From: Felis catus
Taxonomy: Eukaryota
Length of the DNA: 64,000 bases
Assembly: GCF_018350175.1 (NCBI RefSeq)
Contig: NC_058369.1
Coordinates: forward strand, 10,788,001 to 10,852,000
Reading direction: 5' to 3'
Shown here: piece after piece, positions 2,378 to 62,793 of the stretch
How the letters are laid out: each line of letters starts with the position of its first letter
Position numbering within the stretch: the first letter of the stretch is position 1
The notes under the pieces: generated by a model
Databases searched by the model: none
What the model was told of the DNA's origin: nothing
What the model saw: only the letters and a program-made list of their open reading frames with translations
Position numbers and translations under genes: made by a program

Positions 2378-3299
2378 GGGCCAATAGTCCTGGGGCTGGA
2401 GACATACCCATGACTGCAAGGCTCAGAGCCTCAGAGCTATTCCTTGATCAGACTGTGGAAGTAGAATCTGTTCCTTCTATTTATTTCCTGGAATTTCCAT
2501 TTGTTTGAATCCAACTTCTCCATATATTTAAAAAACTCCCTTTATGAAGCTTCTGCTCTGTCTGATACACTATTTCACTTTTGTTCATTTTCATGTGTTC
2601 CCAATGTTTTCCCCAACCTTAGATCACAAATGCCTGGAAATTTCTGTATCTTACGATGGGCAAGTTGGTCTCCTTGAAAATAAATCAAATGATTTATACC
2701 ATGCCATATAAATTTTCCCTAATTTTCCCCAAAGAATAATCCCAAGGTGGGTTCTTCATGTGGAAAAATACTGCACTTGGCCCCTAGGCCCTCGACACAA
2801 TTTTATTGTAGATGGAAATACAAAACCTCTGCTTTCACCTGGAGTCTGTCAATCCCTTTTAAGTCCCTTCCTTAAGAACTCTTTGATGATGTGGACCATA
2901 GCAGGGGTCCATTGAAGCCTCAGGCTATTGACACCAATGCTTAGGTAGGAAACCCCAGGCATTTGCATATGGCCTTGTGCTTGTGGACATTCCCCCAAGT
3001 GTTTCCCTGACCAGAGCCTATGCTGTGACTGCCCTGGCCTTTGGGTTCTTATTTTGGTCACAAGACACACCTCAGCACCACCCACCGGAGGACTCTAAAA
3101 ACACAAGGTTCATTGCTCACAAACGTTGAGGGCACATGGGGTTCCCAAAGGCCATTCAAGGAGGTCTCAGAGAGGGAGAGACTTTAACAGGGAAGGAAAG
3201 AGAGCACTATGAAGGATCTGGCTTTTGGGGGGCCCATGGGGGGAGTGACTATGTTTTTCTGGGCTCATTTTTTATGGATGAATTTAAAACACGAGTGGA

Positions 3300-3560
3300 G
3301 TTAGAGGATTGGCCAAATGGGCCAAGGAGAGGGGGAATGGAGTGATGGAAAGATCAATAATGAGAATGGAAGACACAATGTGTGGAATATAGTCATCGAT
3401 GATGTACTAGCGGTAATGGGACAGGTGTCAGTACACCTGTGTGAGCCCGCATAAAGTACAGAGAAGTTGAATCACTGTATTGCAGACCTGAAACTAAGGT
3501 AACATCGTGTGTCAACTACGCTCATGTAAACAGTTAAGAAAAAGAATAATAAAATATTAT
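3300..3560 (+). mobile_element. Old L1 3' end fragment (inverted copy at ~61620-61880)
   Basis: GGAATATAGTCATCGAT...GTTGAATCACTGTATTGCAGACCTGAAACTAA...GTCAACTAC followed by an A-rich tail. Confidence 0.7.
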
Positions 3561-5239
3561 CCCCCAGTACTCAAAAATAACAACAGCAAAAACCAGACAA
3601 AAAGCCCAGTAACGGAATGTGGGCACCGAACGGGAAGAGTGGGGTCACTCACAGTTGTTACCTAGATTACCAGGGCTTTCTAATGGGGGGATTTGTGGGA
3701 GGGGGGGCCTGCATGTTTGTATAGTAACTGAATCATATGCCTGGCAATGTGTTAATATGAATGGTGATCTTTGAAATGGGTGCCTCAGAAGTGAAAAGCC
3801 TAATGTCAGGCAATTATTGTACAAACACGCTTCTGTGTCTCATAACTGGACTCTGTTGTTATTGTTGTTGTTGTTGTTTTCTGTTATTCAGCCCGGCATC
3901 CAGGGGCCTATCATAGCCACTGGCAAAAACTGATGAGCAAATGAAATGTGTACCTCCCCTGGAGTCAACATGGAAAGACAAATTGGAATAAACAGATTGA
4001 TCTAATATGTTCTTGGTGTCAGAGGAGACCATAAACCCGAGGAAGCAAAACACCCATTGTGTTCCCATGCAAAATATTTCTTTTTCATGCGCTGCCTCTA
4101 TTTATTGAAGCATGGAGGCTTTTGTCCGCAGCTGAGGTGGTTTGTTCACTGAGGTAAGGGGTTGCTTAGTGTCTTCTGTTTTATCTCCAAATTCGCTTCC
4201 CGTTTCTTCTGAAAGCTTTGCAACGCTACCTACTATCATGAGTCTTCCTACCGCCGCATGAAATAGGTTCCTTTTCCCAGTATTTGTCACAAATGATGGC
4301 AAATGAACAGTATCAGCCCCATCCATTTCGTGCCTCCGTCCCCCTCTGAAATCACTCCCACCTGCACGACCAGAGGATGCTTCACACGAGAGCTGGATGT
4401 CCTGCTGGCATGTGGCTCAGGGTCCCCAGTTGTTCTGCACAAACATGGATGTCCTTCAAACTCTCCCAGTTACCCAGAAGGGAGCCCACTTGTTCGTAAT
4501 GTCGTGGGAAATAAACTTGAATCACAGAATGATCATGAGTGCTCTCCTCAACGTCAGATCATTTGCCACAAATAAAAATCAGCACATCTTCTAATTGTCT
4601 AAGGTCCGTTCGCTTGGGTTATTGTGTCAGTCAGCTACTGCTGTATAACAGGCGGTCCTTGTCAAATAACATATCATAATACTTTTACAATCAAATGGAA
4701 TCATGTGCGGGGGAGTGTTTCTGATCTCTGCTGGGCTCCTCGTGGGTCTGGGGTCAGGTGTGAGTCTCTACATTGTGTTTCTCAGGCTCATGCGTGGTGT
4801 TGGGCTTGGCTGTAGTGCTCTTCTGTCTTCAACCAATTTATGGTCAGATACGGTTCCCGTATGGAGGTTAATCTTTTCTTTATGGAAACAAACTGCTTTA
4901 TCATGTGAATTACTTAAATGTAATTCCATCGTTCATACATCCATATTAACATTTGGCTTCCTTCCCCATTAGAAGTGCTATCTCCCAGCCCTCTTAAGTG
5001 AGAATCAGCTACCCGTTCTCTAGATCCTAACCTTAGCCATGACCCATTCGATTTTTTTCCACTGAATTAAATCATCGGAGTGTAATTACACACTATAACC
5101 TGAATATGTAAAGTGTGCGCTTTGGTGAATTAAAGGAGCCACACGCAAATGAACAGGAGATATTTCAAGTTTCTGTTTGTGTATATTTTAATGCTGTCAC
5201 ATAAGCTTTAACTGCTTTGTTGGAGAGTTTCTTTTCTAA

Positions 5240-5357
5240 GTTTATTTATTTATTTTGAGAGAGAGAGGAGAGAGAGAGAGAGATGGGTGAGGGGCAGAGA
5301 CAGGGAGAATCCCAAGCAGGCTCCACAGTGTCAGCCCTGATGCAGGGCTCAGTGCCG
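5240..5357 (-). mobile_element. CAN-SINE, 5'-truncated
   Basis: TTTATTTATTTTGAGAGAGAG...AGAATCCCAAGCAGGCTCC. Confidence 0.85.
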
Positions 5358-5384
5358 TGATGTTAGGTAACTTCTAAACACTCA

Positions 5385-6045
5385 AGCATCCTGAGACTTT
5401 GCTGAGTTCATGTATCAGGTCTAGCAGTTTTTTGGTGGAGTCTTTCGAGTTTTCCATGTAGAGTGTCATGTCATCTGCAAAAAGTGAAAGTTTGACTTCT
5501 TTGCCAATTTGGATGCCTTTATTTCATTTTGTTGTCTGATTGCGAGGCTAGGACTCCCAACACTATGTTAAACAACAGCGGTGAGAGTGGACCTCCCTGT
5601 CATGCTCCTGATCTTTGGGGGAAATCTCTCAATCTTTTCCCATGGAGGGTGATAGTAGCTGTGGGCCTTTTTTTGTATGGCTTTTATGGTGTTAAGGTAT
5701 GTTCCTTCTATCCCGACTTTCTCAAGCATTTTTATCAAGAAAGATTCTGTGTTCTGTTGAATGCTTTTTCTGCATCCACTGACAGGATCATATGGTTCTT
5801 GTCCTTTCTTCTATTAATGTGATGTATCACATTGATTTGCAAACATTGAACCAGACTTGCAGCTCAGGAATGAATCCCATGTGATCATGGTGAATAATTC
5901 TTTGGATACACTGTTGAATTCAATTTGCTAGTATCTTGTTAAGAATTTTGCAGGATACAAAATCAATGTACAGAAATCGGTTGCATTTCTATACAGCAAT
6001 AATGAAGCAACAGAAAGAGAAATCAAGGAATTGATCCCATATACA
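5385..6045. mobile_element. L1 ORF2 fragment with 5' inversion (5385-5950 antisense, 5951-6045 sense)
   Basis: RT-region sequence (LFADDM, visible in the ORF-track translation of the mirror copy at 59607..59810). The sense piece starts GCAGGATACAAAATCAATGTACAG, where the antisense piece ends. Confidence 0.9.
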
Positions 6046-6720
6046 TAGACCTGGAGGAAACTGTAACTCACAGTGGTGCTGTGAGCTTACTCATCAGGAA
6101 GGGGTCACATTCATGGAAAAGGAAGAACAAAAAACCTAACTGGAGTTACTGCTTCCAAACTGGTCTCTTGGGATCAGAGATTCATTAGAGAAATGTCCTT
6201 TGTGTGCCAAAGGGTTGTCCACTTGGGAGCCATGCTGGAGTAAGAAGAGAGACATGTACCTAACGAGCAGATACAGGGTGCCGAAAATACCTCCTAGTCT
6301 CCTGTCTGTCAGTGTGTGCAACCTTAGACAGGAAGGGTATGGTTTTCATCTGGTGTTCTGAGTACTCATATTGGCTGGGGGCTGATGCTTCTCTGACCTT
6401 CCTGCTTTCTCCATTGAGGAGAAAATGATCTATAATCTAGCATCCAGGGAGGAATTCAGCATCCAGGGAGGGATTCAGACTTCCACAAGGAGACCTTCCT
6501 GTCAGACAACTCAGCCTCATCATCCGTGGATGAGAGGGTCAGAGAGAGTGGAAGTCGAGAACATTAATCTGTCATCTCCTGAGGGCGAATCCAATTTAGC
6601 CCAGAGTATATCACTGTGTCTGTGTGTTTGCTCGTTTAATTAAGTTATAATGTATTTATTCAGTGCTAATGTCAGTTTCACCGAATGACTGCCGTTCACA
6701 CTTTTGAAGATCTTTCTTAT
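6045..6720 (+). promoter_or_regulatory. Relic module Y, splice donor deleted
   Basis: Paralog of 38980-39640. About 20 bp including GTGAG are missing near 6515. Confidence 0.35.
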
Positions 6721-6799
6721 TCTGTATCATTCAATTGCTATTATGGCCGTGCTAGAAAAAATATGTTGAGATTGTTAAATTCACTGTGTGTTTCTAATC

Positions 6800-6975
6800 G
6801 AGTATAATTTTGTCCCCAGGGGACATTGATCAATGTCTGGAGACACTTTGTCTGTCACGCTGGAGAGGGGTGCACAGAGGTCAGGGATGCTCTGAACATT
6901 TTACAAGGCACAGGACACTCCCCACCACAGGGCAGGCTCTGGGCAGGATGGGTGCAGAGACTGGGAAACTCCTGG
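6800..6975 (+). mobile_element. MER20-like hAT DNA transposon fossil
   Basis: TTTTGTCCCCAGGGGACATTGATCAATGTCTGGAGACA...CAGGGATGCT...CACAGGACA...GAAACTCCTG. Confidence 0.75.
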
Positions 6976-8297
6976 TGACAGAATGTCAGTATCTGTAATA
7001 CAGCCGCTTTCAGCTTCTGCGTTCAACCTTGTTACACTTACTCTTATGCCAACAAATTCAGAATAACCCTTTGGCTCCTATTTGAAAGTTTCAACCACAA
7101 ACAATGTAACAGTCCTGTAAGTTTTTTTCCAGGCTGCTGGGTGAAAGAGGCAATTCTTGTTATTTTCCTAAACCATCCCTCAGTTTCAGCCAAGGTCATA
7201 TGTTTGATGACCATCCTGATTGGTTTTATTATTATATGCCCATAGGTTATTCTCTCTCTCTCTCTCTTTTATTTTTAAAACATTACCAACATTTCAAATG
7301 ATTTCCTGAGATCATTGTTTCTCAATTGATTTTTGCAACATATTTTGATCATAAAAATTTTAAATTTTATTTAAATAAATCTATCTTCTTACTTCTGAGA
7401 TTATGGCTTTATTTAGTGGGTTTGCTCACCTGTGAATGTTATATGTAGTTTCCTTGATGTTCTGCTATATTGTATGGTTACGCTTACACTGGGGTCATAA
7501 TCCCTCTGAATTTTTGTGAAGTGTCTGAGGAGGGGACCGGTTGCATATTCTTCCAGATAGATATCCATTGATGCCAGTATTAGTTTAGCTATCTCTTCAT
7601 TCTAGATGTTATTTAGCAATTCAACCTTTTCCAATGAAATGAAATACAACCTTGCCATATGGTCAATGTCCTTATACTTTGAGACCTAATTTCTGAGTCA
7701 TCCCACAAATACAAACTGAGCATTGTAGGAACATTATACATTACATTTTTTCGCGTGTAGGCCATTGACAATTTAGTTATGAATCCATGTTGATATCATT
7801 AACAATTTCTTTTTTATAGCCAATTTCAGTTAGTTTTTAGTTTTCACATAATTTTGCTGTGGACAGCTGTTTAGAAACTAGTCATTTTCACCTGGTTTCA
7901 TTATCCCTTATTTTTTAAATTCTATAATTTTTCATATCCTTGGTTTTTTCATACTAACCATATATTCACATACATTTGTGACAAAAACAAAAGTGAACAA
8001 AGAAGGTGAAATCCCTTCACTAATGTATGTTTCTGTGTAGCACCAAGGACAGAGAACAATAATATAAATATACGGATGGCATCATGCAGTCAAGCATAAT
8101 CATATGAAACAAGTTTTTTGGTACACAACTGGACTGTCGTGATGTTGGGAGAATTTACAGAGCATGGTCTGGGGAAGCCTCTGTCCACTGGCTGACATAC
8201 AGAATGAGGATTCGAGGTGCCCCTTGGGTTTGTGAAAAAGAGACCAATACGCAGAGTCCAAGAGTATCGAGAGGACATCACATAGGGAAGGGAGACG

Positions 8298-8518
8298 AGT
8301 GCCTGGGTGGCTCAGTGGGTTAAGAGACCTCTTCTTGCTTTCGGCTCAGCTCAGATCTCACCGTTCGTGAGATCCAGCCCCTTGTTGGGCTCTGTGCTGA
8401 CAGCATGGAGCCTGCTTGGGACTCTCTCTGTCCCTCCCCTGCTTTGTGCTCTCTCTCTCTCACACCCTCCCTCCCCTGCTTGTGCTCTCTCTCTGTCAAA
8501 GAAATAAACATTAAAAAG
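8298..8518 (+). mobile_element. CAN-SINE
   Basis: GCCTGGGTGGCTCAGTGGGTTAAG...(CT)n...AAATAAACATTAAAA. Confidence 0.92.
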
Positions 8519-9254
8519 AGAAAGGGATAACAGGGCTGCCCTCACCTGCTGTCAGCCCCCATGAAGACGAATTGCCCAAGTAATGATGCCAGAGGCACAT
8601 GAAAGCGAAGTCTTCCATGGTTGACCTTGTAACTGTGCACCTTGTAGCCAATCACATGCGCTTCCTTTTGTGAAGTGTTGGCTTATCCCCTTGCTCATTT
8701 TTTCCCTTGGCCCCACCATATGTAAGGTGTTTGACGTTAGGAAGATATCGGCACTTTCGTCTTTGGGGAAGGTAAATGTGTTCTCACATAGTTTTTGCTG
8801 GACCTCAGGGGAAGTGGTCGGGTGCAAAGCTGTCAGAAGCGAGGAGGTTACTGTTTGTCATAGTCCCTCGGGGACCCTCTGAGCTTCTTGGATCCTTGAA
8901 TTTCAATAAATAAATTTTAAAAAGTTGGGGTACTAACCTCTTCGGTTGTGTAATAGTTTAGCAGAAACAAGTAGGAATTTCATTATTAGATCACGAGTTA
9001 CAAACTGTCATTTTTCCCTCCTTATGAAGTGTATATTAATTATAAGAGATACATTTCGATTTTCTGCAGCATAGACTAGCTTAGCACACTAAAGGGATTC
9101 TATGGTTTAATTTTGACAAAAGTACAATCTATGATGTAGTACTTTCATGAGCTGTTTCTCTATTGTAGAAATGGGCTCAGAGGAATTCAATGTGCTGTTC
9201 AAAGGCACAAACCAATTAGCAAGTAGTCTTAATTGGAATGATGTCAGGATGTTT

Positions 9255-9600
9255 CCGGTTCTGAAACTCTGGGAAGTGGTTCCCAACCAGAGTTGCTCTT
9301 GGGATTTTTGTCCATGTCTGAAGAGGTGCTTCTGAATACCTTCAGCCGCAGGACAACACCCGACAGAAAAAGTTATCCAGCTCCAAGGGTCAATGGCGAG
9401 AAGGTGAAGAAACCTGTTCCACACTAAGGTTTCTCCACTGTGCACACAATTCACCAGGGACTGTAGTTGAAATGCAAATTCTGATTCCTCAGGTCTCCAG
9501 GGGCCCCGAGAACCCTGCTTCTCTAACAAGCCCCCTGGTGGGTTTGATGCTGCGGGTCCTGGATGTGGAGAACAGACTGAGAGCAAAGCTGTGGTCCATC
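9255..9600. mobile_element. Degenerate MER20/MER5-like DNA transposon fossils (paralogs ~27050-27400, 37400-37720, 49080-49420, 55590-55930)
   Basis: AAATGCAAATTCTGATTC...TCTCTAACAAGCCCCCTGGTG...GATGCTGC is MER5A-like. The same block recurs five times. Confidence 0.55.
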
Positions 9601-9624
9601 GTTAGGAGAAATTTAAGTTAGAAT

Positions 9625-9860
9625 TAAAGTTGTGAAGATGGCAATACTAACCCGAAGATCTACAGATTCAATGATAATTTGAAAATAACAAAAATGGGGT
9701 ATTCTTGGAAAACATTTTTAAAACCATCCTAAAATTAAATAAAAAATCTTCCAAGCATGAGCACAGGAGGTCATCCCATTTATTTATGTATTTAATTTCT
9801 TTCAGGACCATTTTATTGGTTTTATTTATGAGTCTTTTGACGGCAATAAGTAACCAATCA
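9625..9860. mobile_element. Old L1 ORF2 fragment with internal inversion (copy at ~55320-55560)
   Basis: AAGATGGCAATACT...GATCTACAGATTCAATG in sense, then TTCCAAGCATGAGCA...CCATTTATTTA in antisense. Confidence 0.65.
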
Positions 9861-10276
9861 TTCACCCCAGCGAATAAATCCCCTTAAACACTGCCACTGC
9901 TATTCCATACTTGATTGAGAGATGTACAGCTTGAGAAAAAATGTAGAGCATAGTAATACAAAGGAGAATTTAAAATTTGCTTTATCATAGTCAAGGTCAT
10001 CTTTGACTCCAAGGCCGTATTAAGTCATTCTACATTTTTGAATTTCTGTTTCCGTGTAGACTCCACTGGTAGACAAGTTTTTGATAATCAGATTTGCCAG
10101 TGACTAATGTAAGCACTGGGGACATAGAGCCTGAGTAGAGAATGGGATCCTAATTCGGAGAAAAAAGCTGATGGTCTCATAAAACACACTTATCTGTTCA
10201 TCAGGAAGAGCAGTTATTGTAGTGATATAGAAAAGAATGACAGACACAAAGTGAAAAACTGTGGTCCCAGAGTTAG

Positions 10277-10409
10277 GATAGAATAGAATGGAATAAATAG
10301 AATAGAATAGAATATAGAATAGAATCGAATAGAGAATAGGATAGTATAGAATAGAGAATAGTATAGAATAGAATAGAATAGAATAGAATAGAATAGAATA
10401 GAATAGAAA
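10277..10409. repeat. (GAATA)n pentanucleotide microsatellite
   Basis: Direct reading. The paralogous site at 54870-54905 is short. Confidence 0.95.
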
Positions 10410-10528
10410 TGGCCTATTTGCCAAATTGAATTTATTCCAACAGAGAGGTAACACATGAGTATTCTTTTAGTAAAACTAAAAACATTATTATGTGGAATGA
10501 TTTTGTCATTGGTGAAGAAATTATTCTT

Positions 10529-10747
10529 TTTTCTTCAAAAATTTTTTAATGTTTTTTTTTTTTTGAGGGAGAAGAGACAGAGACGAAACATAAGTGGGGG
10601 GGGGGAGACAAAGGGAGAGACACAAATCTGAAACAGGCTCCAGGCTCTGAGCTATCGGCACACAGCCCAATGTGGGGCTCGAACTTGGGAACCGGGAACC
10701 TGAGCCGAAGTCAGATGCTTAACCAACTGAGCCACCCAGGTGCCCCT
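10529..10747 (-). mobile_element. CAN-SINE with 17-bp TSD GTGAAGAAATTATTCTT
   Basis: TSD at 10512-10528 and 10748-10764. Absent at the paralogous site near 54755. Confidence 0.93.
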
Positions 10748-11015
10748 GTGAAGAAATTATTCTTAAGAAATCCAGGCAGTTCCATGAGACAAATGAGAAC
10801 TCCTAATTTTCTCATATCACAGCTTGCGAATCAATTTAGAAATAAACAAAAAAGATGAAGGGAAAAAGGTTGGAACACAGAGAGGGAAAAACTTAATAAA
10901 ATGAGGAACTAAATTGTACTGAGTGGTTGAAAAAATAAAAATTCTGGGAAATAAATGAGAGACACAAACTCTATGTCTACAATCTGCTTAAAAAAACAAA
11001 ACGCAATTTCTGACG

Positions 11016-12005
11016 CTAAGACTTTGATGCTTGCAATCCTGGGAAATTCTTCAACCACAGGACAATTGGACCTTTTCTAACTGCCATCGCAGAGAATCTC
11101 CTCAGAGCCTTCTTTATGTCTTTGTTCCTCAGGCTGTAGATGAAGGGGTTCAGCATGGGCGTGACCACCGTGTACATCACCGAGGCTGTGGCACTTGAGT
11201 GGGAGCTCTGGGTAGCAGCAGAGCTAAGGTACACTCCGAGGCCCGTACAATAAAATAAGGAGACAACCGAGAGGTGAGATGCACAGGTAGAAAATGCTTT
11301 ATACTTGCCCTGAGCTGAGGAGATCCCACGTATGGAGGAAACTATCTTGGAGTAAGAGTAAAGGATCCCAACGAAAGGACCGCCACCCACTAGGATAGCT
11401 GCAAAATACATCACCAAGTTATTAAGAAAGGTGTCAGAACAGGCAACTTGGGTCATCTGATTGAGTTCACAGGAAAAATGGGGGATTTCCACGACTGTAC
11501 AGAAGGACAGCCGCAACACCATTGAAGTTTGCAACAAGGAATGCAGGACACTCGTGATCCAGGACACCAGGACCAGCAGTGCACAGAGCCGGGGGCTCAT
11601 GATGACCGTGTATTGCAGGGGGTGACAGATGGCCACAAACCTGTCATAGGCCATAATGGCCAGGAGGCAGATGTCCAATCCTGAAAAGATTATGAAAAAG
11701 TTCATCTGGGTGATGCAGTCCTCATAGGTTATGACTTTGCTCTGGGTCTGGATGTTCCACAGCATCTTCGGGATGGTGGTGGAGGTGATGCAGATGTCTA
11801 CAAAGGACAGGTTGGCCAGGAAGAAGTACATGGGCGTGTGGAGGCCGGAGTCATAGCTGACGGCCAGGATGATGAGCAGGTTCCCAAACACAGTGATCAG
11901 GTACATGGAGAGGAAAAGCCCAAATATGAGGGGTTGCTGTTCTGAACTGTCTGAAAATCCCAGAAGCAGAAATTCTGATGTCCGTGTATCATTTCCTGGT
12001 TCCAT
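11016..12005 (-). CDS. Olfactory receptor, family 7 (OR7A-like), intact, 329 aa (OR-2)
   Basis: All OR motifs present. Start set at MEPGNDT (12005) by homology with paralogs. The tail is extended because the paralogous TGA at codon 323 is GGA here. Confidence 0.93.
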
Positions 12006-12756: not shown

Positions 12757-12762
12757 CGCACG

Positions 12763-18279: not shown

Positions 18280-18502
18280 TTTTTTTTTAAATTTTTTTTT
18301 CAATGTTTATTTATTTTTGGGACAGAGAGAGACAGAGCATGAACGGGGGAGGAGCAGAGAGAGAGGGAGGCACAGAATCGGAAACAGGCTCCAGGCTCTG
18401 AGCCATCAGCCCAGAGCCCGACGCGGGGCTCGAACTCACGGACCGCGAGATCGCGACCTGGCTGAAGTCAGACGCTTAACCGACTGCGCCACCCAGGCGC
18501 CC
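18280..18502 (-). mobile_element. Young felid SINE (SINEC_Fc) with 19-bp TSD CAAGGTTGTGCATTTTCTT
   Basis: Near-consensus and CpG-rich. TSD at 18261-18279 and 18503-18521. Confidence 0.96.
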
Positions 18503-19725: not shown

Positions 19726-20599
19726 AACTACCTCTCATTGAGGGTCATTTCCCCATAGCCAGAAAAGATTGAAAATGTATGCATTATTGTGTTGGAAAAC
19801 TGGTGTCCCTGATTCACATGATCAGACAGGAATGCAAGCTCCCTCTTATGTCATCCCTTGAGCATAGAAGATGAATAGAATCCTGAGCCTGAGAAACATG
19901 TATAATGGAGGAAATGACCATTCGACACCCCTTTCGTGGTTATGACAAAATTTAGAAGGAAAGGGGATATATTTCTTTTACAACAATGAAAGGAGTCATA
20001 CCAAAGGCAGCGTAAAGATTTCAGGAAGAAACAAGGAGATAATTCAATAAAAGTAGAAAAATGTCAATCAGTCCTTCCCCCATTTGGATAAGCCGCCTTA
20101 CACATGGCCACCAATCCTCCATACTCCAATAAATAGCCGTACAGCATGAAGAATAAATACTTTAAAGAGCACAATGTGCGATTTAAAATAAAATAAAATT
20201 TTGCTTCATCATATTAAAGGGCATCTGGAGTCTAAGGTCATACTCTAAAGTCAATCTATCTATTAGTGTTTGTTGTTCCATGAAGACTTCTCTTGGAGAC
20301 GCGTATTTGGTGAACACTTCAGTAAGGAAGTGACTTTCGTACACATTGTGGACAACAAGGTACTAAGAGACCAGGATCCTAATGAGGAGAATAAAACCCA
20401 TCTATACGACACATTAATATATTAAGTGTCCATTATTAAGAAGAGCAGTTAAGATACTGATATACAAAGGAGCTTCAGACATATAAGCGAAAAAACGTAG
20501 CCTCAGATATTGTTCTACTTTAAAATCACATATATTTGTTATAAAGTGTGGTTGTTTCCATAGGTGGCGTATCAATCATGACAGTTCTTTTTGTTTGTT

Positions 20600-21136: not shown

Positions 21137-22105
21137 TCATAGGCACTTCTTCAATCTTATGACGATTGGCCATGTAAGGGTCTCCTTCCCAAAGAATGCT
21201 TTCAGAGCCCTTTTCATGTCTTTGTTCCTCAAGCTGTAGATGAAGGGGTTCAGCATGGGCGTGACCACCGTGTACATCACCGAGGCTGTGGCACTTGACC
21301 GTGAGCTCTGGGTAGCAGCAGAGCTCAGGTACACGCCGAGCATCGTACAGTAAAATAAACACACGACCGACAGGTGAGACGCACAGGTGGAAAACGTTTT
21401 ATACTTGCCCTTAGCTGATGCAATCCCACGTATAGAGGAAACTATCTTGGAATAAGAGTAAAGGATCCCAGCAAAAGGACCACCACCCAGCAGGACAGCT
21501 GCAAGATACATCACCACGTTATTAAGAAAGGTGTCAGAGCAGGCAAGTTGGAGCATCTGATTGAGTTCGCAGAAAAAGTGGGGGATTTCCACCTCTGTAC
21601 AGAAGGACAGCCGAAATGCCATTAAGGTTTGTAACAAGNNNNNNNNNNNNNNNNNNNNNNNNNNNNNNNNNNNNNNNNNNNNNNNNNNNNNNNNNNNNNN
21701 NNNNNNNNNNNNNNNNNNNNNNNNNNNNNNNNNNNNNNNNNNNNNNNNNNNNNNNNNNNNNNNNNNNNNNNNNNNNAACACACCAAAGAGTATGAAAAAA
21801 TAAATCTGTGTGATGCAATCCTCATAGGTTATGACTTTGCTCTGAGTCCGGATGTTCACCAGCATCTTCGGGACGGTGGTGGAGGTGAAGCAGATGTCTA
21901 CAAAGGACAGGTTGGCCAGGAAGAAGTACATGGGCGTGTGGAGGTTGGGGTCTGTGCTGATGGCCAAGATGATGAGCAGGTTCCCAAACACAGTGATCAG
22001 GTACATGGAGAGGAAAAACCCAAATATGAGGGGCTGCAGTCCTGGTTCCTCTGAAAACCCCAGAAGAAGAAACTTTGAAATTTGTGTTTCATTACTTGGT
22101 TCCAT
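21137..22105 (-). CDS. Olfactory receptor, family 7 (OR7A-like), 322 aa, interrupted by an N gap (OR-3)
   Basis: MEPSNETQ start, [36 protein letters not shown]3-TM4 lies in Ns 21639-21776; frame is preserved across the gap but intactness inside it is unknown. Confidence 0.85.
21639..21776. other. Assembly gap (138 N)
   Basis: Run of N. Confidence 1.
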
Positions 22106-38914: not shown

Positions 38915-39640
38915 TGGGTCCCTAGGACAGGCAATGCTTGGAAGACAAAGAGGACTAATCCCGGAGGGTTCCTTGGTCTTAGACTTGGAGGAAAGTGTGT
39001 CTCGGCCGAGATCAGGTGCCAGACGATTTACACATCAGGAAGGGAACAAGTTCAGGGAAAAGGGGAGGAAAAAAAGAACTGCATTCACTTGGTCTCTGAC
39101 CTAGTCTTTTGGGAACCGAGAGTCATTAGGAAAAAATACTTGTGTCCAGAGCAGTTTCCCACTTGGGAATATGAGATCAGAGGCTGGGGTACCAAGAGGG
39201 AAATGAGCCTAATGAGCAGATACGGGGAGCTGTAAACACTCTCTGGTCTCCTGTCAGCCTGTGCGAACTTGGATGGAAAGGGACAAGGTCTCCGTCTGTT
39301 CTTCCAGGCCCTAATTACGGCTGGGGCCCATGCTTTACTCCTTTCTGCTGTCTCAGCTGAGAACAGAGCTTTAGTCCCTACCATCTGCAGTCCAGGGAGG
39401 CATTCAGACTTGTCACAAGGAGACCTTGTCAGACACCCCAGCCAGGTGAGCCCAACGGCCCGATGCGCCGTGGATGACAGGGTCATAAGAATGGAAGCCA
39501 ACTTCATTAACCTGTCTTCGCCTGAGAGCCAATTCAACTTAGTGCAGGACAGGTGATCACTGTGTTCATTTGTTTGTTCGATTAAGTGATGTATTTATTC
39601 AGTGGCTGTGTCAATTTTACAGAGTGGATGCTCACACTTA
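38915..39640 (+). promoter_or_regulatory. Orphan module Y (own OR coding region absent)
   Basis: Inverted paralog of 25500-26200. CAG|GTGAGC donor at 39445/39446. Confidence 0.45.
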
Positions 39641-40074
39641 CGTTGATCTTCCATATTCTATTCCTTTAACTTACTATTAAGGCAATGGCAGTTTATTTTA
39701 CCACCTGGTGTCTCAGGAACCACACAAGTTTATTAGATAATTGCTCTGCCTCATCTGTTTCATTCACTGCCCCCCTCCCCCCGACTCTCTGCCTCGCTGT
39801 CTGTTGAACAGACTGTTTTATGTTTGTGTGAATCACAGCAGAAACTTACCATTCCAATATGGAGCCTCAAATTCATTTGTCCATGGGAGGCTTAAGAACT
39901 GGCATTTCTGGGAACCATTTCTATACTTTGCGGGGAAAAGATGGCTGATCTGGCCTCCTTGGGTTGTGTCCATTCCCAGCATAACTGGGATGGTGAGTCT
40001 GTGAAGACAGGGAAATGCACATCCCAGGAGGCCATGGTGTCTTGTGACTGGTGAAGGGTGAGCAGTCCTCAAAA

Positions 40075-43746: not shown

Positions 43747-44679
43747 ATGGAACCAGGAAATATTACACGGATATCAAAATTTCTTCTCCTGGGATTTTCA
43801 GTGAGACCAGAACTGCAGCCCCTCATATTTGGACTTTTCCTCTCCATGTACCTGATCACTGTGTTTGGCAACCTGCTCATCATCCTGGCCGTCAGCTCTG
43901 ACTCCCGCCTCCACACCCCCATGTACTTCTTCCTGGCCAACCTGTCCTTTGTAGACATCTGCTTCACCTCCACCACAGTCCCGAAGATGCTGGTGAACAT
44001 CCAGACCCAGAGCAACATCATAACCCATGAGGACTGCATCACACAAATGAACTTCTTCATAATCTTTTCAGGGTTGGACATCTATCTCCTGGCTGTGATG
44101 GCCTATGACCGGTTTGTGGCCATCTGTCACCCCCTGCACTATAAGGTCATCATGAACCCCCGGCTCTGTGGGCTGCTGGTCCTGGTGTCCTGGATCACAA
44201 GTATCCTGCATTCCTTGTTACAAACTTCAATGGTGTTGCAGCTGTCCTTCTGTACAGAGGTAGAAATCCCCCACTTTTTCTGTGAACTCAATCAGTTGAT
44301 CCAACTTGCCTGTTCTGACACCTTTCTTAATAACTTGGTGATGTACCTTGCAGCTATGCTGCTGGCTGGAGGTCCCCTTGCTGGGATCCTTTACTCTTAT
44401 TCTAAGATAGTTTCCACCATAATTGGAATCTCATCAGCTCAGGGAAAGTATAAAGCGTTTTCCACCTGTGTATCTCATCTTTTAGTTGTATCTTTATTTT
44501 TTTGTACGAGCCTAGGTGTGTACCTCAGCTCTGCTGCCACCCAGAGCTCCCACTCAAGTGCCACAGCCTCGGTGATGTACACGGTGGTCACGCCCATGCT
44601 GAACCCCTTCATCTACAGCCTGAGGAACAAAGACCTAAAGGTGGTTCTTAAAAGAATCATTGGGATTTCATTGACGTGA
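43747..44679 (+). CDS. Olfactory receptor, family 7 (OR7A-like), intact, 310 aa (OR-5)
   Basis: All OR motifs. ATG at 43747 (MEPGNIT). Confidence 0.94.
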
Positions 44680-53386: not shown

Positions 53387-54355
53387 ATGGAACCAGGAAA
53401 TGATACACGACTATTAGAATTTCTGCTTCTGGGATTTTCAGAGGGACCAGAACTTCAGCCCCTCATATTTGGGCTTTTCCTCTCCATGTACCTGATCACT
53501 GTGTTTGGGAACCTGCTCATCCTCCTGGCCGTCAGCTCTGACTCCCACCTCCACACCCCCATGTACTTCTTCCTGGCCAACCTGTCCTTTGTAGACATCT
53601 GCATCACCTCCACAATCATCCCGAAGATGCTGGTGAACATCCAGACTCAGAGTAAAGTTATAACCTATGACGACTGCATCACACAGATGGACTTTTTCTT
53701 AATCTTTTCAGTGTTGGACATGTATCTCCTGACCATGATGGCCTATGACAGGTTTGTGGCCATCTGTCACCCCCTGCACTACACAGTCATCATGAGCCCT
53801 CGGCTCTGTGCACTGCTGGTCCTGGTGTCCTGGATCATGAGTGTCCTGCATTCCTTGTTACAAACCTTAATGGTGTTGCAGCTGTCCTTCTGTACAGAGG
53901 TAGAAATCCCCCACTTTTTTTGTGAACTCAATCAGATGACCCAACTGGCTTGTTCTGACACCTTTTTTAATAACTTGGTGATGTATCTTGCAGCTATGCT
54001 GCTAGGTGGTGGTCCCTTCATTGGGATCCTTTACTCTTACTCCAAGATAGCTTTCTGCATACAGAGAATCTCATCAGCTCAGGGGAAGTATAAAGCATTT
54101 TCCACCTGTGCAACTCACCTCTCCGTTGTCTCTCTATTTTATTGTACTGGCCTGGGAGTGTACCTCAGCTCTGCTGCTACCCAGGGCTCCCACTCGAGTG
54201 CCACAGCCTCGGTGATGTACACGGTGGTCACGCCCATGCTGAACCCCTTCATCTACAGCCTGAGGAACAGAGACATAAAGGAGGCTCTGAGGAGATTCTC
54301 TGGGATGGTAGCTATAAAAGTTCCAATTGTCCTGGGGTTGAAGAATTTCCCATGA
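53387..54355 (+). CDS. Olfactory receptor, family 7 (OR7A-like), intact, 322 aa (OR-6)
   Basis: All OR motifs. Shares [28 protein letters not shown] and the LKNFP tail with OR-2. Confidence 0.95.
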
Positions 54356-54387
54356 TTGCAGGCCTCATGGTCTTAAATGAATAAGTT

Positions 54388-54675: not shown

Positions 54676-56659
54676 GTAAATTGATTCCCAACCTGTGATA
54701 TGGAAAACTTAGGAATTTTCATTTATCTAATGGAACTGCTTGGATTTCTTAAGAATAATTTATTCCCAAATGACAAAAATTACCCCATTTAATATGTCCT
54801 TAGTTTTCCTAAAAGAATATTCATTTGTTACCACTCTGATGGAAAAAATTCAGTTTGATCAGTAGTTCATTTCTATTCTGTTTTATTCTATTCTATTCTA
54901 TTCTAAATCTGATACCACAGTTTTTCACTTTGTGTCTGTCATTCTTTTGTATATCACTACAATAACTGCTCTTCCTGATGAACAGATAAGTGTGTTTTAT
55001 GAGACCATCAGCTTTTTTCTCCGAATTAGGATCCCATCTTCTTCTCAGGCTCTATGTCCCCAGTGCTTACATTAGTCACTGCCAAAACTGATTATCAAAA
55101 ACTTGTCTACCAGTGGAGTCTACACGGAAACAGAAATTCAAATAAGTAGAATGACTTAATACGGCTTTGGAGTCAAAGATGACCTTGACTATGATAAAGC
55201 AAATTTTAAACTCTCCTTTGTATTACTATGCTCTACATTTTTTCTCAAGCTGTACATCTCTCAATCAAGTATGGAATAGCAGTGGCTGTGTTTAAGGGGA
55301 TTTATTCGCTGGGGTGAATGACTGGTTACTTATTGCCGTCAAAAGACTTATAAATAAAAACAATCAAATGGTCCTGAAAGAAATTAAAGAATACATAAAT
55401 AAATGGGATGACCTCCTGTGCTCATGCTTGGAAGATTTTTTATTTAATTTTAGGATGGTTTTAAAAATGTTTTCCAAGGATACCCCATTTTTGTTATTAT
55501 CAAATTATCATTGAATCTGTAGATCTTTGGGTAGTATTGCCATCTTAACAACTTTAATTCTAATTTAAATTTCTCCTAACGAAGGACCACAGCTTTGCTC
55601 TCAGTCTGGACTCCACATCCAGGACCCGGAGCATCAAACCCACCAGGGAGCTTGTTAGAGAAGCAGGGTCCTCGGGGTCCCTGGAGACCTGAGGAATCAG
55701 AATTTGCATTTCAACTACAGTCCCTGGTGAATTGTGTGCACAGTGGAGAAACCTTAGTGTGGAACAGGTTTCCTCACCTTCTCGCCATTGACCCTTGGAG
55801 CTGGGTAACTATTTTTGTCGAGTGGTGTCCTGCGGCTGATGATATTCAGAAGCACCTCTTCAGACATGGACAAAAATCCCAAGAGCCACTCTGGTAGGAA
55901 CCACTTCCCAGAGTTTCAGAACCGGAAACATCCTGACATCATTCCAATTAAGACTACATGCTGATTGGTTTGTGCCTTTGAGCAGTACATTGAATTCCTC
56001 TGAGCCCATTTCTACAATAGTAAATACATCTCATGAAAGTACTACATCAAAGATTGTACTTTTGTCAAAATTAAACCATAGAACCCCTTTAGTGTGCTAA
56101 GCTAGTCTATGCTGCAGAAAATCGAAATGTATCTCTTATTAATAAACACTTCATTATGAGGGAAAAATGACAGTTTGTAACTCGTGATCTAATAATGAAA
56201 TTCCTACTTGTTTCTGCTAAACTATTACACAACCAAAGAGGTTAGTACCCCAACTTTTTAAAATTCATTTATTAAAATTCAAGGATCCAAGAAGCTCAGA
56301 GGGTCCCCGAGGGACTGTGACGAACAGTAACCTCCTCGCTTCTGACAGCTTTGCACCCGACCACCTCCCCTGAGGCCCAGCAAAAACCATGTGAGAACAC
56401 ATTTGCCTCCCCCAAAGACGAAAGTGCTGATATCTTCCTAATGTCAAACACCTTACATATGGCAGGCCCAAGGGAAAAAATGAGCAAGGGGATAAGCCAA
56501 CACTTCACAAAAGGAAGCGCATGTGATTGGCTACAAGGTGCACAGTTACAAGGTCAACCATGGAAGACTTCGCTTTCATGTGCCTCTGGCATCATTACTT
56601 GGGCAATTCGTCTTCATGGGGGCTGACAGCAGGTGAGGGCAGCCCTGTTATCCCTTTCT

Positions 56660-56880
56660 CTTTTTAATGTTTATTTCTTTGAGAGAGAGAGAGCACAAGC
56701 AGGGGAGGGAGGGTGAGAGAGAGAGAGAGCACAAAGCAGGGGAGGGACAGAGAGAGTCCCAAGCAGGCTCCATGCTGTCAGCACAGAGCCCAACAAGGGT
56801 CTGGATCTCACGAACGGTGAGATCTGAGCTGAGCCGAAAGCAAGAAGAGGTCTCTTAACCCACTGAGCCACCGAGGCACT
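56660..56880 (-). mobile_element. CAN-SINE (copy of 8298-8518)
   Basis: Reverse complement of the left-arm SINE. Confidence 0.92.
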
Positions 56881-58204
56881 CGTCTCCCATCCCTATGTGA
56901 TGTCCTCTCATCGATACTCTTGGACTCTGCGTATTGGTCTCTTTTTCACAAACCCAAGGGGCACCTCGAATCCTCATTCTGTATGTCAGCCAGTGGACAG
57001 AGGCTTCCCCAGACCATGCTCTGTAAATGCTCCCAACATCACGACAGTCCAGTTGTGTACCAAAAAACTTGTTTCATATGATTATGCTTGACTGCATGAT
57101 GCCATCCGTATATTTATATTATTGTTCTCTGTCCTTGGTGCTACACAGAAACATATGTTAGTGAAGGGATTTCACCTTCTTTGTTCACTTTTGTTTTTGT
57201 CACAAATGTATGTGAATATATGGTTAGTATGAAAAAACCAAGGATATGAAAAATTATAGAATTTAAAAAATAAGGGATAATGAAACCAGGTGAAAATGAC
57301 TAGTTTCTAAACAGCTGTCCACAGCAAAATTATGTGAAAACTAAAAACTAACTGAAATTGGCTATAAAAAAGAAATTGTTAATGATATCAACATGGATTC
57401 ATAACTAAATTGTCAATGGCCTACACGCGAAAAAATGTAATGTATAATGTTCCTACAATGCTCAGTTTGTATTTGTGGGATGACTCAGAAATTAGGTCTC
57501 AAAGTATAAGGACATTGACCATATGGCAAGGTTGTATTTTATTTCATTGGAAAAGGTTGAATTGCTAAATAACATCTAGAATGAAGAGATAGCTAAACTA
57601 ATACTGGCATCAATGGATATCTATCTGGAAGAATATGCAATTGGTCCCCTCCTCAGACACTTCACAAAAATTCAGAGGGATTATGACCCCAGTGGAAGCG
57701 TAACCATACAATATAGCAGAACATCAAGGAAACTACATATAACACTCACAGGTGAGCAAACCCACTAAATAAAGCCATAATCTCAGAAGTAAGAAGATAG
57801 ATTTATTTAAATAAAATTTAAAATTTTTATGATCAAAATATGTTGCAAAAATCAATTGAGAAACAATGATCTCAGGAAATCATTTGAAATGTTGGTAATG
57901 TTTTAAAAATAAAAGAGAGAGAGAGAGAGAATAACCTATGGGCATATAATAATAATAAAACCAATCAGGATGGTCATCAAACATATGACCTTGGCTGAAA
58001 CTGAGGGATGGTTTAGGAAAATAACAAGAACTGCCTCTTTCACCCAGCAGCCTGGAAAAAAACTTACAGGACTGTTACATTGTTTGTGGTTGAAACTTTC
58101 AAATAGGAGCCAAGGGTCATTCTGAATTTGTTGGCATAAGAGTAAGTGTAACAAGGTTGAAGGCAGAAGCTGAAAGCAGCTGTATTACAGATACTGACAT
58201 TCTG

Positions 58205-58380
58205 TCACCAGGAGTTTCCCAGTCTCTGCACCCATCCTGCCCAGAGCCTGCCCTGTGGTGGGGAGTGTCCTGTGCCTTGTAAAATGTTCAGAGCATCCCT
58301 GACCTCTGTGCACCCCTCTCCAGCGTGACAGACAAAGTGTCTCCAGACATTGATCAATGTCCCCTGGGGACAAAATTATA
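58205..58380 (-). mobile_element. MER20-like fossil (copy of 6800-6975)
   Basis: Reverse complement of the left-arm copy. Confidence 0.75.
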
Positions 58381-58469
58381 CTCGATTAGAAACACACAGT
58401 GAATTTAACAATCTCAACATATTTTTTCTAGCACGGCCATAATAGCAATTGAATGATACAGAATAAGAA

Positions 58470-59135
58470 AGATCTTCAAAAGTGTGAACGGCAGTCATTC
58501 GGTGAAACTGACATTAGCACTGAATAAATACATTATAACTTAATTAAACGAGCAAACACACAGACACAGTGATATGCTCTGGGCTAAATTGGATTGGCCC
58601 TCAGGAGATGACTGATTAATGTTCTCGACTTCCACTCTCTCTGACCCTCTCATCCATGGACCAGGCTGAGTTGTCTGACAGGAAGGTCTCCTTGTGGAAG
58701 TCTGAATCCCTCCCTGGATGCTGAATTCCTCCCTGGATGCCAGATTATAGATCATTTTCTCCTCAATGGAGAAAGCAGGAAGGTCAGAGAAGCATCAGCC
58801 CCCAGCCAATATGAGTACTCAGAACACCAGATGAAAACCACACCCCTTCCTGTCTAAGGTTGCACACACTGACAGACAGGAGACTAGGAGGTATTTTCGG
58901 CACCCTGTATCTGCTCGTTAGGTACATGTCTCTCTTCTTACTCCAGCATGGCTCCCAAGTGGACAACCCTTTGGCACACAAAGGACATTTCTCTAATGAA
59001 TCTCTGATCCCAAGAGACCAGTTTGGAAGCAGTAACTCCAGTTAGGTTTTTTGTTCTTCCTTTTCCATGAATGTGACCCCTTCCTGATGAGTAAGCTCAC
59101 AGCACCACTGTGAGTTACAGTTTCCTCCAGGTCTA
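58470..59135 (-). promoter_or_regulatory. Relic module Y, inverted copy of 6045-6720
   Basis: Lies inside the near-identical inverted core. Confidence 0.35.
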
Positions 59136-59800
59136 TGTATATGGGATCAATTCCTTGATTTCTCTTTCTGTTGCTTCATTATTGCTGTATAGAAATGCAA
59201 CCGATTTCTGTACATTAACTTTATATCCTGCAAAAATTCTTAACAAGATACTAGCAAATTGAATTCAACAGTGTATCCAAAGAATTATTCACCATGATCA
59301 CATGGGATTCATTCCTGAGCTGCAAGTCTGGTTCAATGTTTGCAAATCAATGTGATACATCACATTAATAGAAGAAAGGACAAGAACCATATGATCCTGT
59401 CAGTGGATGCAGAAAAAGCATTCAACAGAACACAGAATCTTTCTTGATAAAAATGCTTGAGAAAGTCGGGATAGAAGGAACATACCTTAACACCATAAAA
59501 GCCGTACAAAAAAAGGCCCACAGCTACTATCACCCTCCGTGGGAAAAGATTGAGAGATTTCCCCCAAAGATCAGGAGCATGACAGGGAGGTCCACTCTCA
59601 CCGCTGTTGTTTAACATAGTGTTGGGAGTCCTAGCCTCAGCAACCAGACAACAAAATGAAATAAAAAGCATCCAAATTGGCAAACAAGTCAAACTTTCAC
59701 TTTTTGCAGATGACATGACACTCTACACGGAAAACTCGAAAGACTCCACCAAAAACCTGCTAGAGCTGACACATGAACTCAGCAAAGTCTCAGGATGCTT
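59135..59800. mobile_element. L1 ORF2 fragment with 5' inversion (copy of 5385-6045)
   Basis: Translation FNIVLGVLA...[12 protein letters not shown] is L1 reverse transcriptase. Confidence 0.9.
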
Positions 59801-59824
59801 GAGTGTTTAGAAGTTACCTAACAT

Positions 59825-59945
59825 CACGGCACTGAGCCCTGCATCAGGGCTGACACTGTGGAGCCTGCTTGGGATTCTCCCTATCTCTGCCCCTCACCCA
59901 TCTCTCTCTCTCTCTCCTCTCTCTCTCAAAATAAATAAATGAACT
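59825..59945 (+). mobile_element. CAN-SINE, 5'-truncated (copy of 5240-5357)
   Basis: GGAGCCTGCTTGGGATTCTC...(CT)n AAATAAATAAA. Confidence 0.85.
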
Positions 59946-61619
59946 TAGAAAAGAAACTCTCCAACAAAGCAGTTAAAGCTTATGTGACAGTATTAAAATA
60001 TACAGAAATAGAAACTCGAAATATCTACTGTTCATTTGCGTGTGGCTCCTTTAATTCACCAAAGCGCACACTTTACATATGCAGGTTATAGTGTGTAATT
60101 ACACTCCGATGATTTAATTCAGTGGAAAAAATCGAATGGGTCATGGCTAAGGTTAGGATCTAGAGAACGGGTAGCTGATTCTCACTTAAGAGGGCTGGGA
60201 GATAGCACTTCTAATGGGGAAGGAAGCCAAATGTTAATATGGATGTATGAACGATGGAATTACATTTAAGTAATTCACATGATAAAGCAGTTTGTTTCCA
60301 TAAAGAAAAGATTAACCTCCATACGGGAACCGTATCTGACCATAAATTGGTTGAAGACAGAAGAGCACTACAGCCAAGCCCAACACCACGCATGAGCCTG
60401 AGAAACACAATGTAGAGACTCACACCTGACCCCAGACCCACGAGGAGCCCAGCAGAGATCAGAAACATTCCCCCGCACATGATTCCATTTGATTGTAAAA
60501 GTATTATGATATGTTATTTGACAAGGACCGCCTGTTATACAGCAGTAGCTGACTGACACAATAACCCAAGCGAACGGACCTTAGACAATTAGAAGATGTG
60601 CTGATTTTTATTTGTGGCAAATGATCTGACGTTGAGGAGAGCACTCATGATCGTTCTGTGATTCAAGTTTATTTCCCACGACGTTACGAACAAGTGGGCT
60701 CCCTTCTGGGTAACTGGGAGAGTTTGAAGGACATCCATGTTTGTGCAGAACAACTGGGGACCCTGAGCCACATGCCAGCAGGACATCCAGCTCTCGTGTG
60801 AAGCATCCTCTGGTCGTGCAGGTGGGAGCGATTTCAGAGGGGGACGGAGGCACGAAATGGATGGGGCTGATACTGTTCATTTGCCATCATTTGTGACAAA
60901 TACTGGGAAAAGGAACCTATTTCATGTGACGGTAGGAAGACTCATGATAGTAGGTAGCGTTGCAAAGCTTTCAGAAGAAACGGGAAGCGAATTTGGAGAT
61001 AAAACAGAAGACACTAAGCAACCCCTTACCTCAGTGAACAAACCACCTCAGCTGCGGACAAAAGCCTCCATGCTTCAATAAATAGAGGCAGCGCATGAAA
61101 AGGAAATATTTTGCATGGGAACACAATGGGTGTTTTGCTTCCTCGGGTTTATGGTCTCCTCTGACACCAAGAACATATTAGATCAATCTGTTTATTCCAA
61201 TTTGTCTTTCCATGTTGACCCCAGGGGCGGTACACATTTCATTTGCTCATCAGTTTTTGCCAGTGGCTATGATAGGCCCCTGGACGCCGGGCTGAATAAC
61301 AGAAAACAACAACAACAACGAGTCCAGTTATGAGACACAGAAGCGTGTTTGTACAATAATTGCCTGACATTAGGCTTTTCACTTCTGAGGCACCCATTTC
61401 AAAGATCACCATTCATATTAACACATTGCCAGGCATATGATTCAGTTACTATACAAACATGCAGACCCCCCCCTCCCACAAATCCCCCCATTAGAAAGCC
61501 CTGGTAATCTAGGTAACAACTGTGAGTGACCCCACTCTTCCCGTTCGGTGCCCACATTCCGTTACTGGGCTTTTTGTCTGGTTTTTGCTGTTGTTATTTT
61601 TGAGTACTGGGGGATAATA

Positions 61620-61880
61620 TTTTATTATTCTTTTTCTTTAACTGTTTACATGAGCGTAGTTGACACACGATGTTACCTTAGTTTCAGGTTTGCAATACAG
61701 TGATTCAACTTCTCTGTACTTTATGCGGGGCTCACACAGGTGTACTGACACCTGTCCCATTACTGCTAGTACATCATCGATGACTATATTCCACACACTG
61801 TGTCTTCCATTCTCATTATTGATCTTTCCATCACTCCATTCCCCCTCTCCTTGGCCCATTTGGCCAATCCTCTAACTCCA
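61620..61880 (-). mobile_element. Old L1 3' end (copy of 3300-3560)
   Basis: Reverse complement of the left-arm copy. Confidence 0.7.
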
Positions 61881-62793
61881 CTCGTGTTTTAAATTCATCC
61901 ATAAAAAATGAGCCCAGAAAAACGTAGTCACTCCCCCCATGGACCCCCCCAAAAGCCAGATCCTTCATAGTGCTCTCTTTCCTTCCCTGTTAAAGTCTCT
62001 CCCTCTCTGAGACCTCCTTGAATGGCCTTTGGGAATCCCATGTGCCCTCAACGTTTGTGAGCAATGAACCTTGTGTTTTTAGAGTCCTCCGGGGGGTGTT
62101 GCTGAGGTGTGTCTTGTGACCAAAATAAGAACCCAAAGGCCAGGGCAGTCACAGCATAGGCTCTGGTCAGGGAAACACTTGGGGGAATGTCCACAAGCAC
62201 AAGGCCATGTGCAAATGCCTGGGGTATCCTACCTAAGCATTGGTGTCAATAGCCTGAGGCTTAAATGGACCCCTGCTAGAGTCCACATCGTCAAAGAGTT
62301 CTTAAGGAAGGGACTTAAAAGGGATTGACAGACTCCAGGTGAAAGCAGAGGTTTTGTATTTCCATCTACAATAAAATTGTGTCGAGGGCCTAGGGGCCAA
62401 GTGCAGTGTTTTTCCACATGAAGAACCCACCTTGGGATTATTCTTTGGGGGAAATTGGGGAAAATTTATGTGGCATGGTAGAAATCATGGTATAAATTCA
62501 TTTCAGTTTGAAATGGAATTATTTTTAAGGAGACCAACTTGCCCATTGTAAGGTAATTTCCTGGCATTTGTGATCCAACAATTGGGAAAACACTGGGAAC
62601 GTATGAAAGTGAACAAGGGTGAAATGGTATATCAGACAGAGTGGAAACTTGATAAAGTGAGTTACCTCAATGTATAGGAAAGTTGAATTCAAACAAACGG
62701 AAATGCCAGGAAATAAACAGAAGGAGCAGATTCTACTTCCCCAGACTGATCAAAGATTAGAAGTTCCCGGCTCTGAGGCTCTGAGCCCTGCAA

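Follow-up and report, generated by a model that had tools for sequence, protein, structure and literature searches.

The analysed stretch, referred to below as the window, comprises 64,000 bp of the cat (Felis catus) genome (assembly GCF_018350175.1, contig NC_058369.1, positions 10,788,001–10,852,000) and contains seven olfactory receptor (OR) genes of the OR7A type, OR-1 to OR-7, together with an inverted repeat whose near-identical core of 7.6 kb lies between OR-1 and OR-2 (arm 1) and again between OR-6 and OR-7 (arm 2). The assignment to OR7A-type class II receptors is based on the 7tm_4 domain detected with Pfam in OR-1 and OR-6 and on the nearest named relatives, which are OR7A or OLF4 proteins. 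OR-1 (1445–2377, plus strand) encodes an intact receptor of 310 amino acids and converges with OR-2 (11016–12005, minus strand), which is likewise intact (open frame from 12047). These are followed by OR-3 (21137–22105, minus), OR-4 (34371–35297, plus) and OR-5 (43747–44679, plus), while the second convergent pair is formed by the intact OR-6 (53387–54355, plus, 322 amino acids) and OR-7 (62794–63762, minus). The 322-codon frame of OR-7 is interrupted at codon 186 by a premature in-frame stop (CAA to TAA, 63207–63205); this position is a sense codon in 9/9 other felid OR-7 proteins aligned, and the stop is either a cat-specific loss or an allele. The interval between the two cores (10266–54913, approximately 45 kb) carries OR-2 to OR-6.

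The window was aligned to itself by blastn and the core was then aligned globally; all comparisons within the window rest on one cat assembly. Blastn gave a single inverted match, 1216–10307 against 63999–54871, with 95.4% identity over 9,157 columns. In the global alignment the arm 1 core (2697–10265) is the reverse complement of 62480–54914 in arm 2 and differs from it by 138 substitutions in 7,549 columns (1.83% divergence) plus 19 indels, by which the inverted near-identical core of the original prediction, made from the sequence alone, was borne out. The abrupt drop of identity claimed outside the core was also found: the 3′ flanks diverge by 16.6% between OR-1 and OR-7 (52/314) and by 22.6% between OR-2 and OR-6 (84/371, private short interspersed nuclear element [SINE] and microsatellite excluded), a drop reproduced in 0/200 permutations, and the identity profile has sharp steps at both ends instead of a uniform level over core and flanks. 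Change points were located at about 2727 and 8711, each matched by 0/200 permutations, and the change-point analysis supported no additional split of the core. The second of them separates an inner tier (2697–8710, plus, in arm 1; 56468–62480, minus, in arm 2), where 74 of 5,999 aligned positions are substituted (1.19%, 95% interval 0.93–1.50), from an outer tier (8711–10265, plus; 54914–56467, minus) with 64 substitutions in 1,550 positions (4.13%, 3.18–5.27). The surplus of differences noticed earlier at 8.6–10.2 kb is thus present, but it resolves into a sharp second tier that starts at 8711 and stands at 4.1% versus 1.2%. Counted as ungapped substitutions, the identity of the arms is 98.2% in the whole core and 98.8% in the inner tier; the gapped values are 98.3% for the inner and 95.3% for the outer tier. 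The substitutions are scattered in a random-like manner in both tiers (dispersion p 0.11–0.36 and 0.17–0.34) and the longest difference-free run is 397 bp, compared with 402 bp expected; the even scatter in each tier fits single long events. A possible remnant of the older tier at 2697–2968 (10/272) was rejected, as it improved the fit by just 1.3 log-likelihood units and had been picked post hoc.

The two arms were paired by their non-coding flanks. Coding similarity alone does not pair them, because OR-7/OR-4 (9.8% divergence) and OR-4/OR-5 (8.2%) are equally close as OR-1/OR-7 (10.9%) and OR-2/OR-6 (8.9%, first 912 nucleotides). The 5′ flank of OR-1 (1216–1444, plus) matches only that of OR-7 (63999–63763, cut by the window end), with 23 substitutions in 226 columns, and it has no match upstream of OR-2 to OR-6; the downstream region of OR-2 likewise resembles that of OR-6 alone. 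The outward homology of OR-1 with OR-7 and of OR-2 with OR-6 that had been proposed therefore holds in the non-coding flanks, while the coding homology is approximately at family level; the earlier count of 34 differences in the first 185 residues of OR-1 and OR-7 was exact.

At the left edge, the unconverted 3′ flank of OR-1 (2378–2696, plus) is colinear with the flanks of OR-4 and OR-5, and in both arms this colinearity runs uninterrupted through 2697. The arms differ here in length by 25 bp (62489–62513, minus); judged against OR-4 and OR-5, arm 1 has lost 6 bp, and arm 2 has acquired about 19 bp that nearly repeat the sequence next to them. Sites where OR-4 and OR-5 agree served as outgroup: in the left flank (303 sites) the arms share 19 states against it and have 42 private ones, while over the core's initial 525 bp (514 sites) they share 95 and have nine private. 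This contrast (Fisher p 6e-16, left edge only) has the form expected of a conversion tract. The right edge coincides with a microsatellite, (TAGAA)26 in arm 1 (10274–10408, plus) and (TAGAA)7 in arm 2 (54871–54905, minus), beyond which aligned flank is found in both arms. A SINE private to arm 1 (10528–10747, minus) lies in this flank, bordered by a 16-bp target-site duplication (10512–10527 and 10748–10763), and arm 2 has an empty site opposite to it. Indels and private SINEs just outside the core had indeed been predicted. The whole spacers between the gene pairs measure 8,638 and 8,438 bp. The core is accordingly a sharply bounded segment of high identity between paralogues, with homologous, older and in-register flanks on both sides, as is typical for conversion tracts. 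Flanks that are in register at both ends point to homology-directed copying, unlike duplicative insertion or a staggered-break inversion, and judged from these alignments the edges show replacement, not insertion.

The age of the duplication was approached through cross-species comparisons of annotated proteins only; the orthologue trees were built with FastTree and used for felid orthologue groups alone, the deep nodes being weak. Within the cat, the proteins of OR-1/OR-7 and OR-2/OR-6 are approximately 85% alike, and each of the four has a separate relative in Panthera: OR-1 in jaguar (94.2%), OR-7 in jaguar (94.5%), OR-2 in leopard (90.0%) and OR-6 in tiger (97.4%). Further orthologues of OR-1 were found in lynxes, jaguarundi and Geoffroy's cat, and those of OR-2 in lion, leopard cat and Geoffroy's cat; OR-6 is about 97% identical to its orthologues across felids. 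Since the four genes each match a Panthera orthologue of their own, the duplication predates the Panthera–Felinae split, and the sequence alignments together with the orthologue trees show OR-1/spacer/OR-2 and OR-7/spacer/OR-6 to be the products of one inverted duplication older than that split. Together with the in-register flanks and the colinearity with OR-4 and OR-5, they agree with the proposal of an old inverted duplication carrying a younger homogenised spacer. The lineages of cat and leopard cat separated about 6 million years ago, and by this date the inner tier would be, as a rough estimate, a few million years old and the outer one roughly ten. The genomes of the two species are reported to be 97.3% identical (PMC8006817); by gapped identity the inner tier is closer than this and the outer tier is not, hence the later exchange likely took place after that split. 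The single recent exchange suggested originally thus stands as an exchange, but not as a single one, since at least two of different age are needed, nor as a current one, given the few million years of the inner tier.

Genome assembly is known to be error-prone at near-identical repeats, and the reads of one arm, or of the other haplotype, might have been built into both arms. A copy collapsed in this way would be near identical, whereas the arms carry 138 substitutions distributed evenly within two tiers and without an over-long clean run; with 88 transitions, 25 of them at CpG, and 50 transversions, these differences look like true mutations. There is no N in either arm, and of six window translations sought among annotated proteins five were found, placed on a chromosome-scale record of 169 Mb. 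An assembly artefact is therefore very improbable.

The content of the core was considered with respect to a second alternative, namely purifying selection on a regulatory element of the spacer such as an OR enhancer. Its first part continues the OR 3′ flank (2378–5218), which matches the OR-5 flank piecewise at about 69–80%. In both arms this is followed by a SINE remnant and a fragment of the L1 open reading frame 2 (ORF2) (5233–6045, limits approximate); the ORF2 pieces lie on the minus strand at about 5360–5930 and, for a short length, on the plus strand at about 5932–6045, and match RVT_1 weakly (E 0.005, below the Pfam cut-off). The next segment (6046–8268, plus; 59140–56890 in arm 2) is 65–78% identical to the upstream regions of OR-3 (26146–23991) and OR-5 (39028–39683), but no coding exon comes after it. 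It likely originated as a promoter and 5′ non-coding exon region and, by its sequence, now appears to be a dead, orphan OR upstream module: in both arms the CAG/GTGAG donor-like site is deleted and TAATGA, which is kept by OR-3 and OR-5, has become TAACGA. The TAATGA motif is described as the homeodomain site of OR enhancers (PMC8213819). The module faces the 3′ ends of OR-2 and OR-6. Another SINE common to both arms (8290–8525, plus, limits approximate) is identified by many look-alike copies within the window; an attempt to date the core SINEs failed, as they were not recovered with a young-SINE query. One further element in the core is a putative MER20. Of the insertions said earlier to be shared by the arms, the SINEs are thus supported by their look-alike copies and L1 by a weak match, while MER20 is tentative. 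The presence of an OR upstream homologue in the core would suit a selected element. Against this, identity is constant across SINE, L1 and unique DNA, the orphan module has lost its donor-like site and TAATGA and has drifted to 65–78% from the OR-3 and OR-5 copies, and selection would not confine a mixed 6-kb segment to 1.2% divergence and yet let the coding regions drift to 10%. Purifying selection is the least credible of the explanations considered, and the core looks like neutral DNA made up of repeats and a decayed OR module.

Ectopic exchange of some form is very probably the source of the two tiers. We favour two or more rounds of non-reciprocal conversion between the arms, with tracts that stop where the sequence is interrupted, and give this reading a probability of roughly 0.6. 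The two arms would align, the simplest route being a single chromosome folded back on itself, and a spacer with a break would be repaired using the other one as template. An older exchange, covering at least 8711–10265, may have left the tier that is now at 4.1%, and a later one, likely after the separation from the leopard cat, would have reset about 6 kb to identity, which is now 1.2% apart. Both ends of the tracts coincide with interruptions of homology, the 25-bp length difference on the left and the variable microsatellite on the right; these interruptions may be what stopped them, and the more diverged flanks beyond would be poor substrates. In a spacer of neutral-looking DNA, conversions can be fixed freely. 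Lengths of this order are on record: human conversion calls average 6.26 kb (PMC10172114), and in Y-chromosome palindromes tracts can exceed 9 kb, with conversions far outnumbering inversions (PMC3723533).

Several points weigh against this reading. Mammalian conversion tracts are stated to be rarely longer than 1 kb (PMC3961182), and long conversions are rare between copies more than 10% diverged (325 events in 66.1 Mb; PMC10172114), so it must be assumed that the spacer probably never diverged far, earlier rounds having been erased. No GC bias was detected between the arms (25 vs. 37, p 0.16; 22 vs. 23); at the sites where an outgroup exists the arm-private changes number four versus five without asymmetry between weak (A/T) and strong (G/C) bases, most sites having no polarising outgroup. 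The end product of conversion would equally result from two crossovers, and further cat copies of OR-1, OR-2 and OR-4 on the same record mean that the donor may be a third copy. In the receptors, run tests found no coding tract between partners (OR-1/OR-7, p 0.17; OR-2/OR-6, p 0.84), partner-type coding residues were not enriched in aggregate over those of non-partner paralogues, and the tiger and jaguar proteins described below could be chimeric gene models.

Reciprocal crossing over deserves attention first, as the cores constitute a several-kb, high-identity inverted repeat of the kind that serves as a substrate for inversion. A crossover between them would invert 10266–54913, which is mechanically possible, and a second one, at another point in a heterozygote, would restore the orientation and homogenise the stretch between the two points. 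This predicts uniform multi-kb tiers with sharp edges, as observed, and would circumvent the rarity of long conversion tracts; moreover, human inversions between inverted repeats often recur (11/16; PMC3961182), and one studied inversion, HsInv0209, has a similar anatomy. On the other hand, palindrome P6 of the Y chromosome has 56 conversions to three inversions (PMC3723533), and the other orientation is not in evidence in the protein records of jaguarundi or leopard. In these species OR-6 and OR-7 have consecutive accessions, in jaguarundi with a contig size of 25,261 bp for both, which hints, indirectly, at the same orientation as in the cat. Two crossovers are possible in our view, though unlikely.

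The cat proteins P0170, P0008 and P0019 lie on the same record as the window and represent a second block about 95–96% identical to OR-1, OR-2 and OR-4, respectively: P0170 differs from OR-1 at 15/310 residues, while P0008 is 95.9% identical to OR-2 and P0019 96.4% to OR-4. Most residues derived relative to these copies sit in the OR-2 (14 differences) and OR-4 (11) of the window, suggesting relaxed or accelerated change in these two sequences. The spacer that such a block likely has could have overwritten one or both arms, or arm 1 could have arisen in the duplication of the block; the shared record and the concentration of derived changes in OR-2 and OR-4 are in its favour. However, the lineages of OR-6 and OR-7 are old and occur throughout the felids, so that the arm 2 spacer must still have exchanged with a spacer of the OR-1/OR-2 type, and the donor alone would change. 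We consider an outside donor improbable.

Conversion between the arms, as favoured here, leaves the question of whether it reached the receptors. The long tract of this cat stops 314–320 bp from the stop codons of OR-1/OR-7 and 560–751 bp from those of OR-6/OR-2, in agreement with the original prediction that all four receptors were spared. Short patches of partner-type sequence were seen nevertheless: OR-6 and OR-2 of the cat differ at 4/90 nucleotides at 376–465 (10–11 for four other genes); near residues 192–200 cat OR-7 is of the OR-1 type, unlike 9/9 other felid OR-7 proteins; and OR-2 of leopard and lion has five residues otherwise private to OR-6. General arm-specific exchange in the coding regions was tested against non-partner donors and did not survive this control. 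OR-1 has 27/225 residues (12.0%) attributable to OR-7 versus 9.2–12.4% for other donors, and OR-7 has 16/198 (8.1%) attributable to OR-1 versus 4.6–11.2%; the corresponding values are 21/152 (13.8%) versus 6.0–13.4% for OR-2 with OR-6 as donor and 4/187 (2.1%) versus 1.5–4.3% for OR-6 with OR-2. Given this lack of aggregate enrichment, the short patches may be ordinary cluster-wide exchange. Identical runs were also found by a corrected permutation test between OR-4 and OR-5 (nucleotides 16–72, p 0.015) and between OR-4 and OR-7 (216–284, p 0.020); they likely represent small conversions between other paralogues.

In Panthera the limits may be different. The OR-1-type and OR-7-type proteins of tiger and jaguar differ at just 1/75 residues at 236–310 and both have a 12-residue tail, while in seven Felinae OR-1/OR-7 pairs the same segment differs at 4–7/75. 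These findings suggest that Panthera has a longer tract, or a separate one, extending into the last ~85 codons of OR-1 and OR-7, and the claim that exchange stopped short of the receptors would then hold for the long tract of this cat and not for tiger and jaguar. Selection against converting receptors is plausible by analogy with the opsins. A broader and rather doubtful reading would make the spacer a long-lived recombination hub, homogenised repeatedly in different cat lineages with moving edges (into the ends of OR-1 and OR-7 in Panthera, short of them in Felis), with selection keeping the ligand-binding parts separate and the 45-kb interval with its five receptors still flipping in living cats, thereby re-pairing receptors with different neighbours.

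A few further observations were made. The jaguar proteins P0062 and P0163 are versions 1 and 2 of one accession and are of the OR-1 and OR-7 type, respectively, a switch that may stem from the way annotations are tracked, or from assemblies that differ in structure. OR-3 contains a run of N (21639–21776) in frame, and a second one is found at 28417–28661, each being either a gap or a mask; an origin of both from a short-read assembly was considered and dropped, one of them being in frame inside OR-3 and the record being of chromosome scale. An inverted pair of 323 bp (20184–20505 vs. 29749–29430, 90% identity), with a 65% look-alike at 9972–10271, is probably a repeat fragment. The alanine transfer RNA predicted by ARAGORN at 18414–18498 proved to be a young SINE's head; this SINE occurs several times in the window. 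An exact-pattern scan of metagenome contigs, carried out once, gave 0 matches.

No published description of this locus was found by title or abstract opening, most subscription papers lying outside the coverage. The locus provides a clean case, in two tiers, of ectopic exchange over long stretches within an olfactory cluster on an autosome. With ~140 arm-specific sites, both conversion and inversion can be typed directly in cats; in the cat genome the locus is also a trap for mapping and a candidate site of inversion. If the edges prove to be lineage-specific across felid assemblies, they would allow a natural experiment on what halts conversion at olfactory receptors, selection or interruptions of the sequence.

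Such exchange is a familiar process, of which the cat locus is a further example. The original prediction held that a non-coding similarity above that of coding DNA is the opposite of the usual pattern, but this is an already described outcome of conversion: the long- and middle-wave (L/M) opsins of primates and the ribonucleases (RNases) of colobines are old duplicates in which gene conversion has made non-coding identity exceed coding identity, and the pairing of such duplicates is said to stop at insertions and large indels (PMC3924837, PMC3213168). The opsins are direct tandem copies, and both conversion and selection on exons were shown across species; the cat arms are inverted, their homogenised DNA is intergenic, and exon selection is plausible only by analogy. 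A close anatomical parallel is HsInv0209, with two inverted duplications of ~7 kb (94% identity on average) that carry the paralogous genes KRTAP5-10 and KRTAP5-11 (85%) and a far more identical non-coding stretch downstream of each gene's 3′ end (PMC3961182). According to that source, this stretch is 782 bp long at 99.9% identity, compared with 7.6 kb in tiers of 98.8% and 95.9% in the cat, and HsInv0209 is a studied inversion locus, while the cat core lies between convergent gene pairs and its inversion is only a candidate. Interlocus conversion in human segmental duplications shares the multi-kb tracts (mean 6.26 kb) between dispersed copies, but those events are polymorphic and mostly involve high-identity copies (PMC10172114), whereas in the cat a single assembly was compared and the flanks are 17–23% diverged. 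Finally, in the palindromes of sex chromosomes, for example P6, conversion likewise maintains the similarity of inverted arms; the tracts span several kb and inversions are rare. The P6 arms are reported to be >99.9% identical and GC-biased and lie on a non-recombining chromosome (PMC3723533). The cat arms are short, 1–4% apart, separated by a 45-kb spacer and without detected GC asymmetry, and they stay below the arm identity of >99% that characterises large palindromes of the P6 type.

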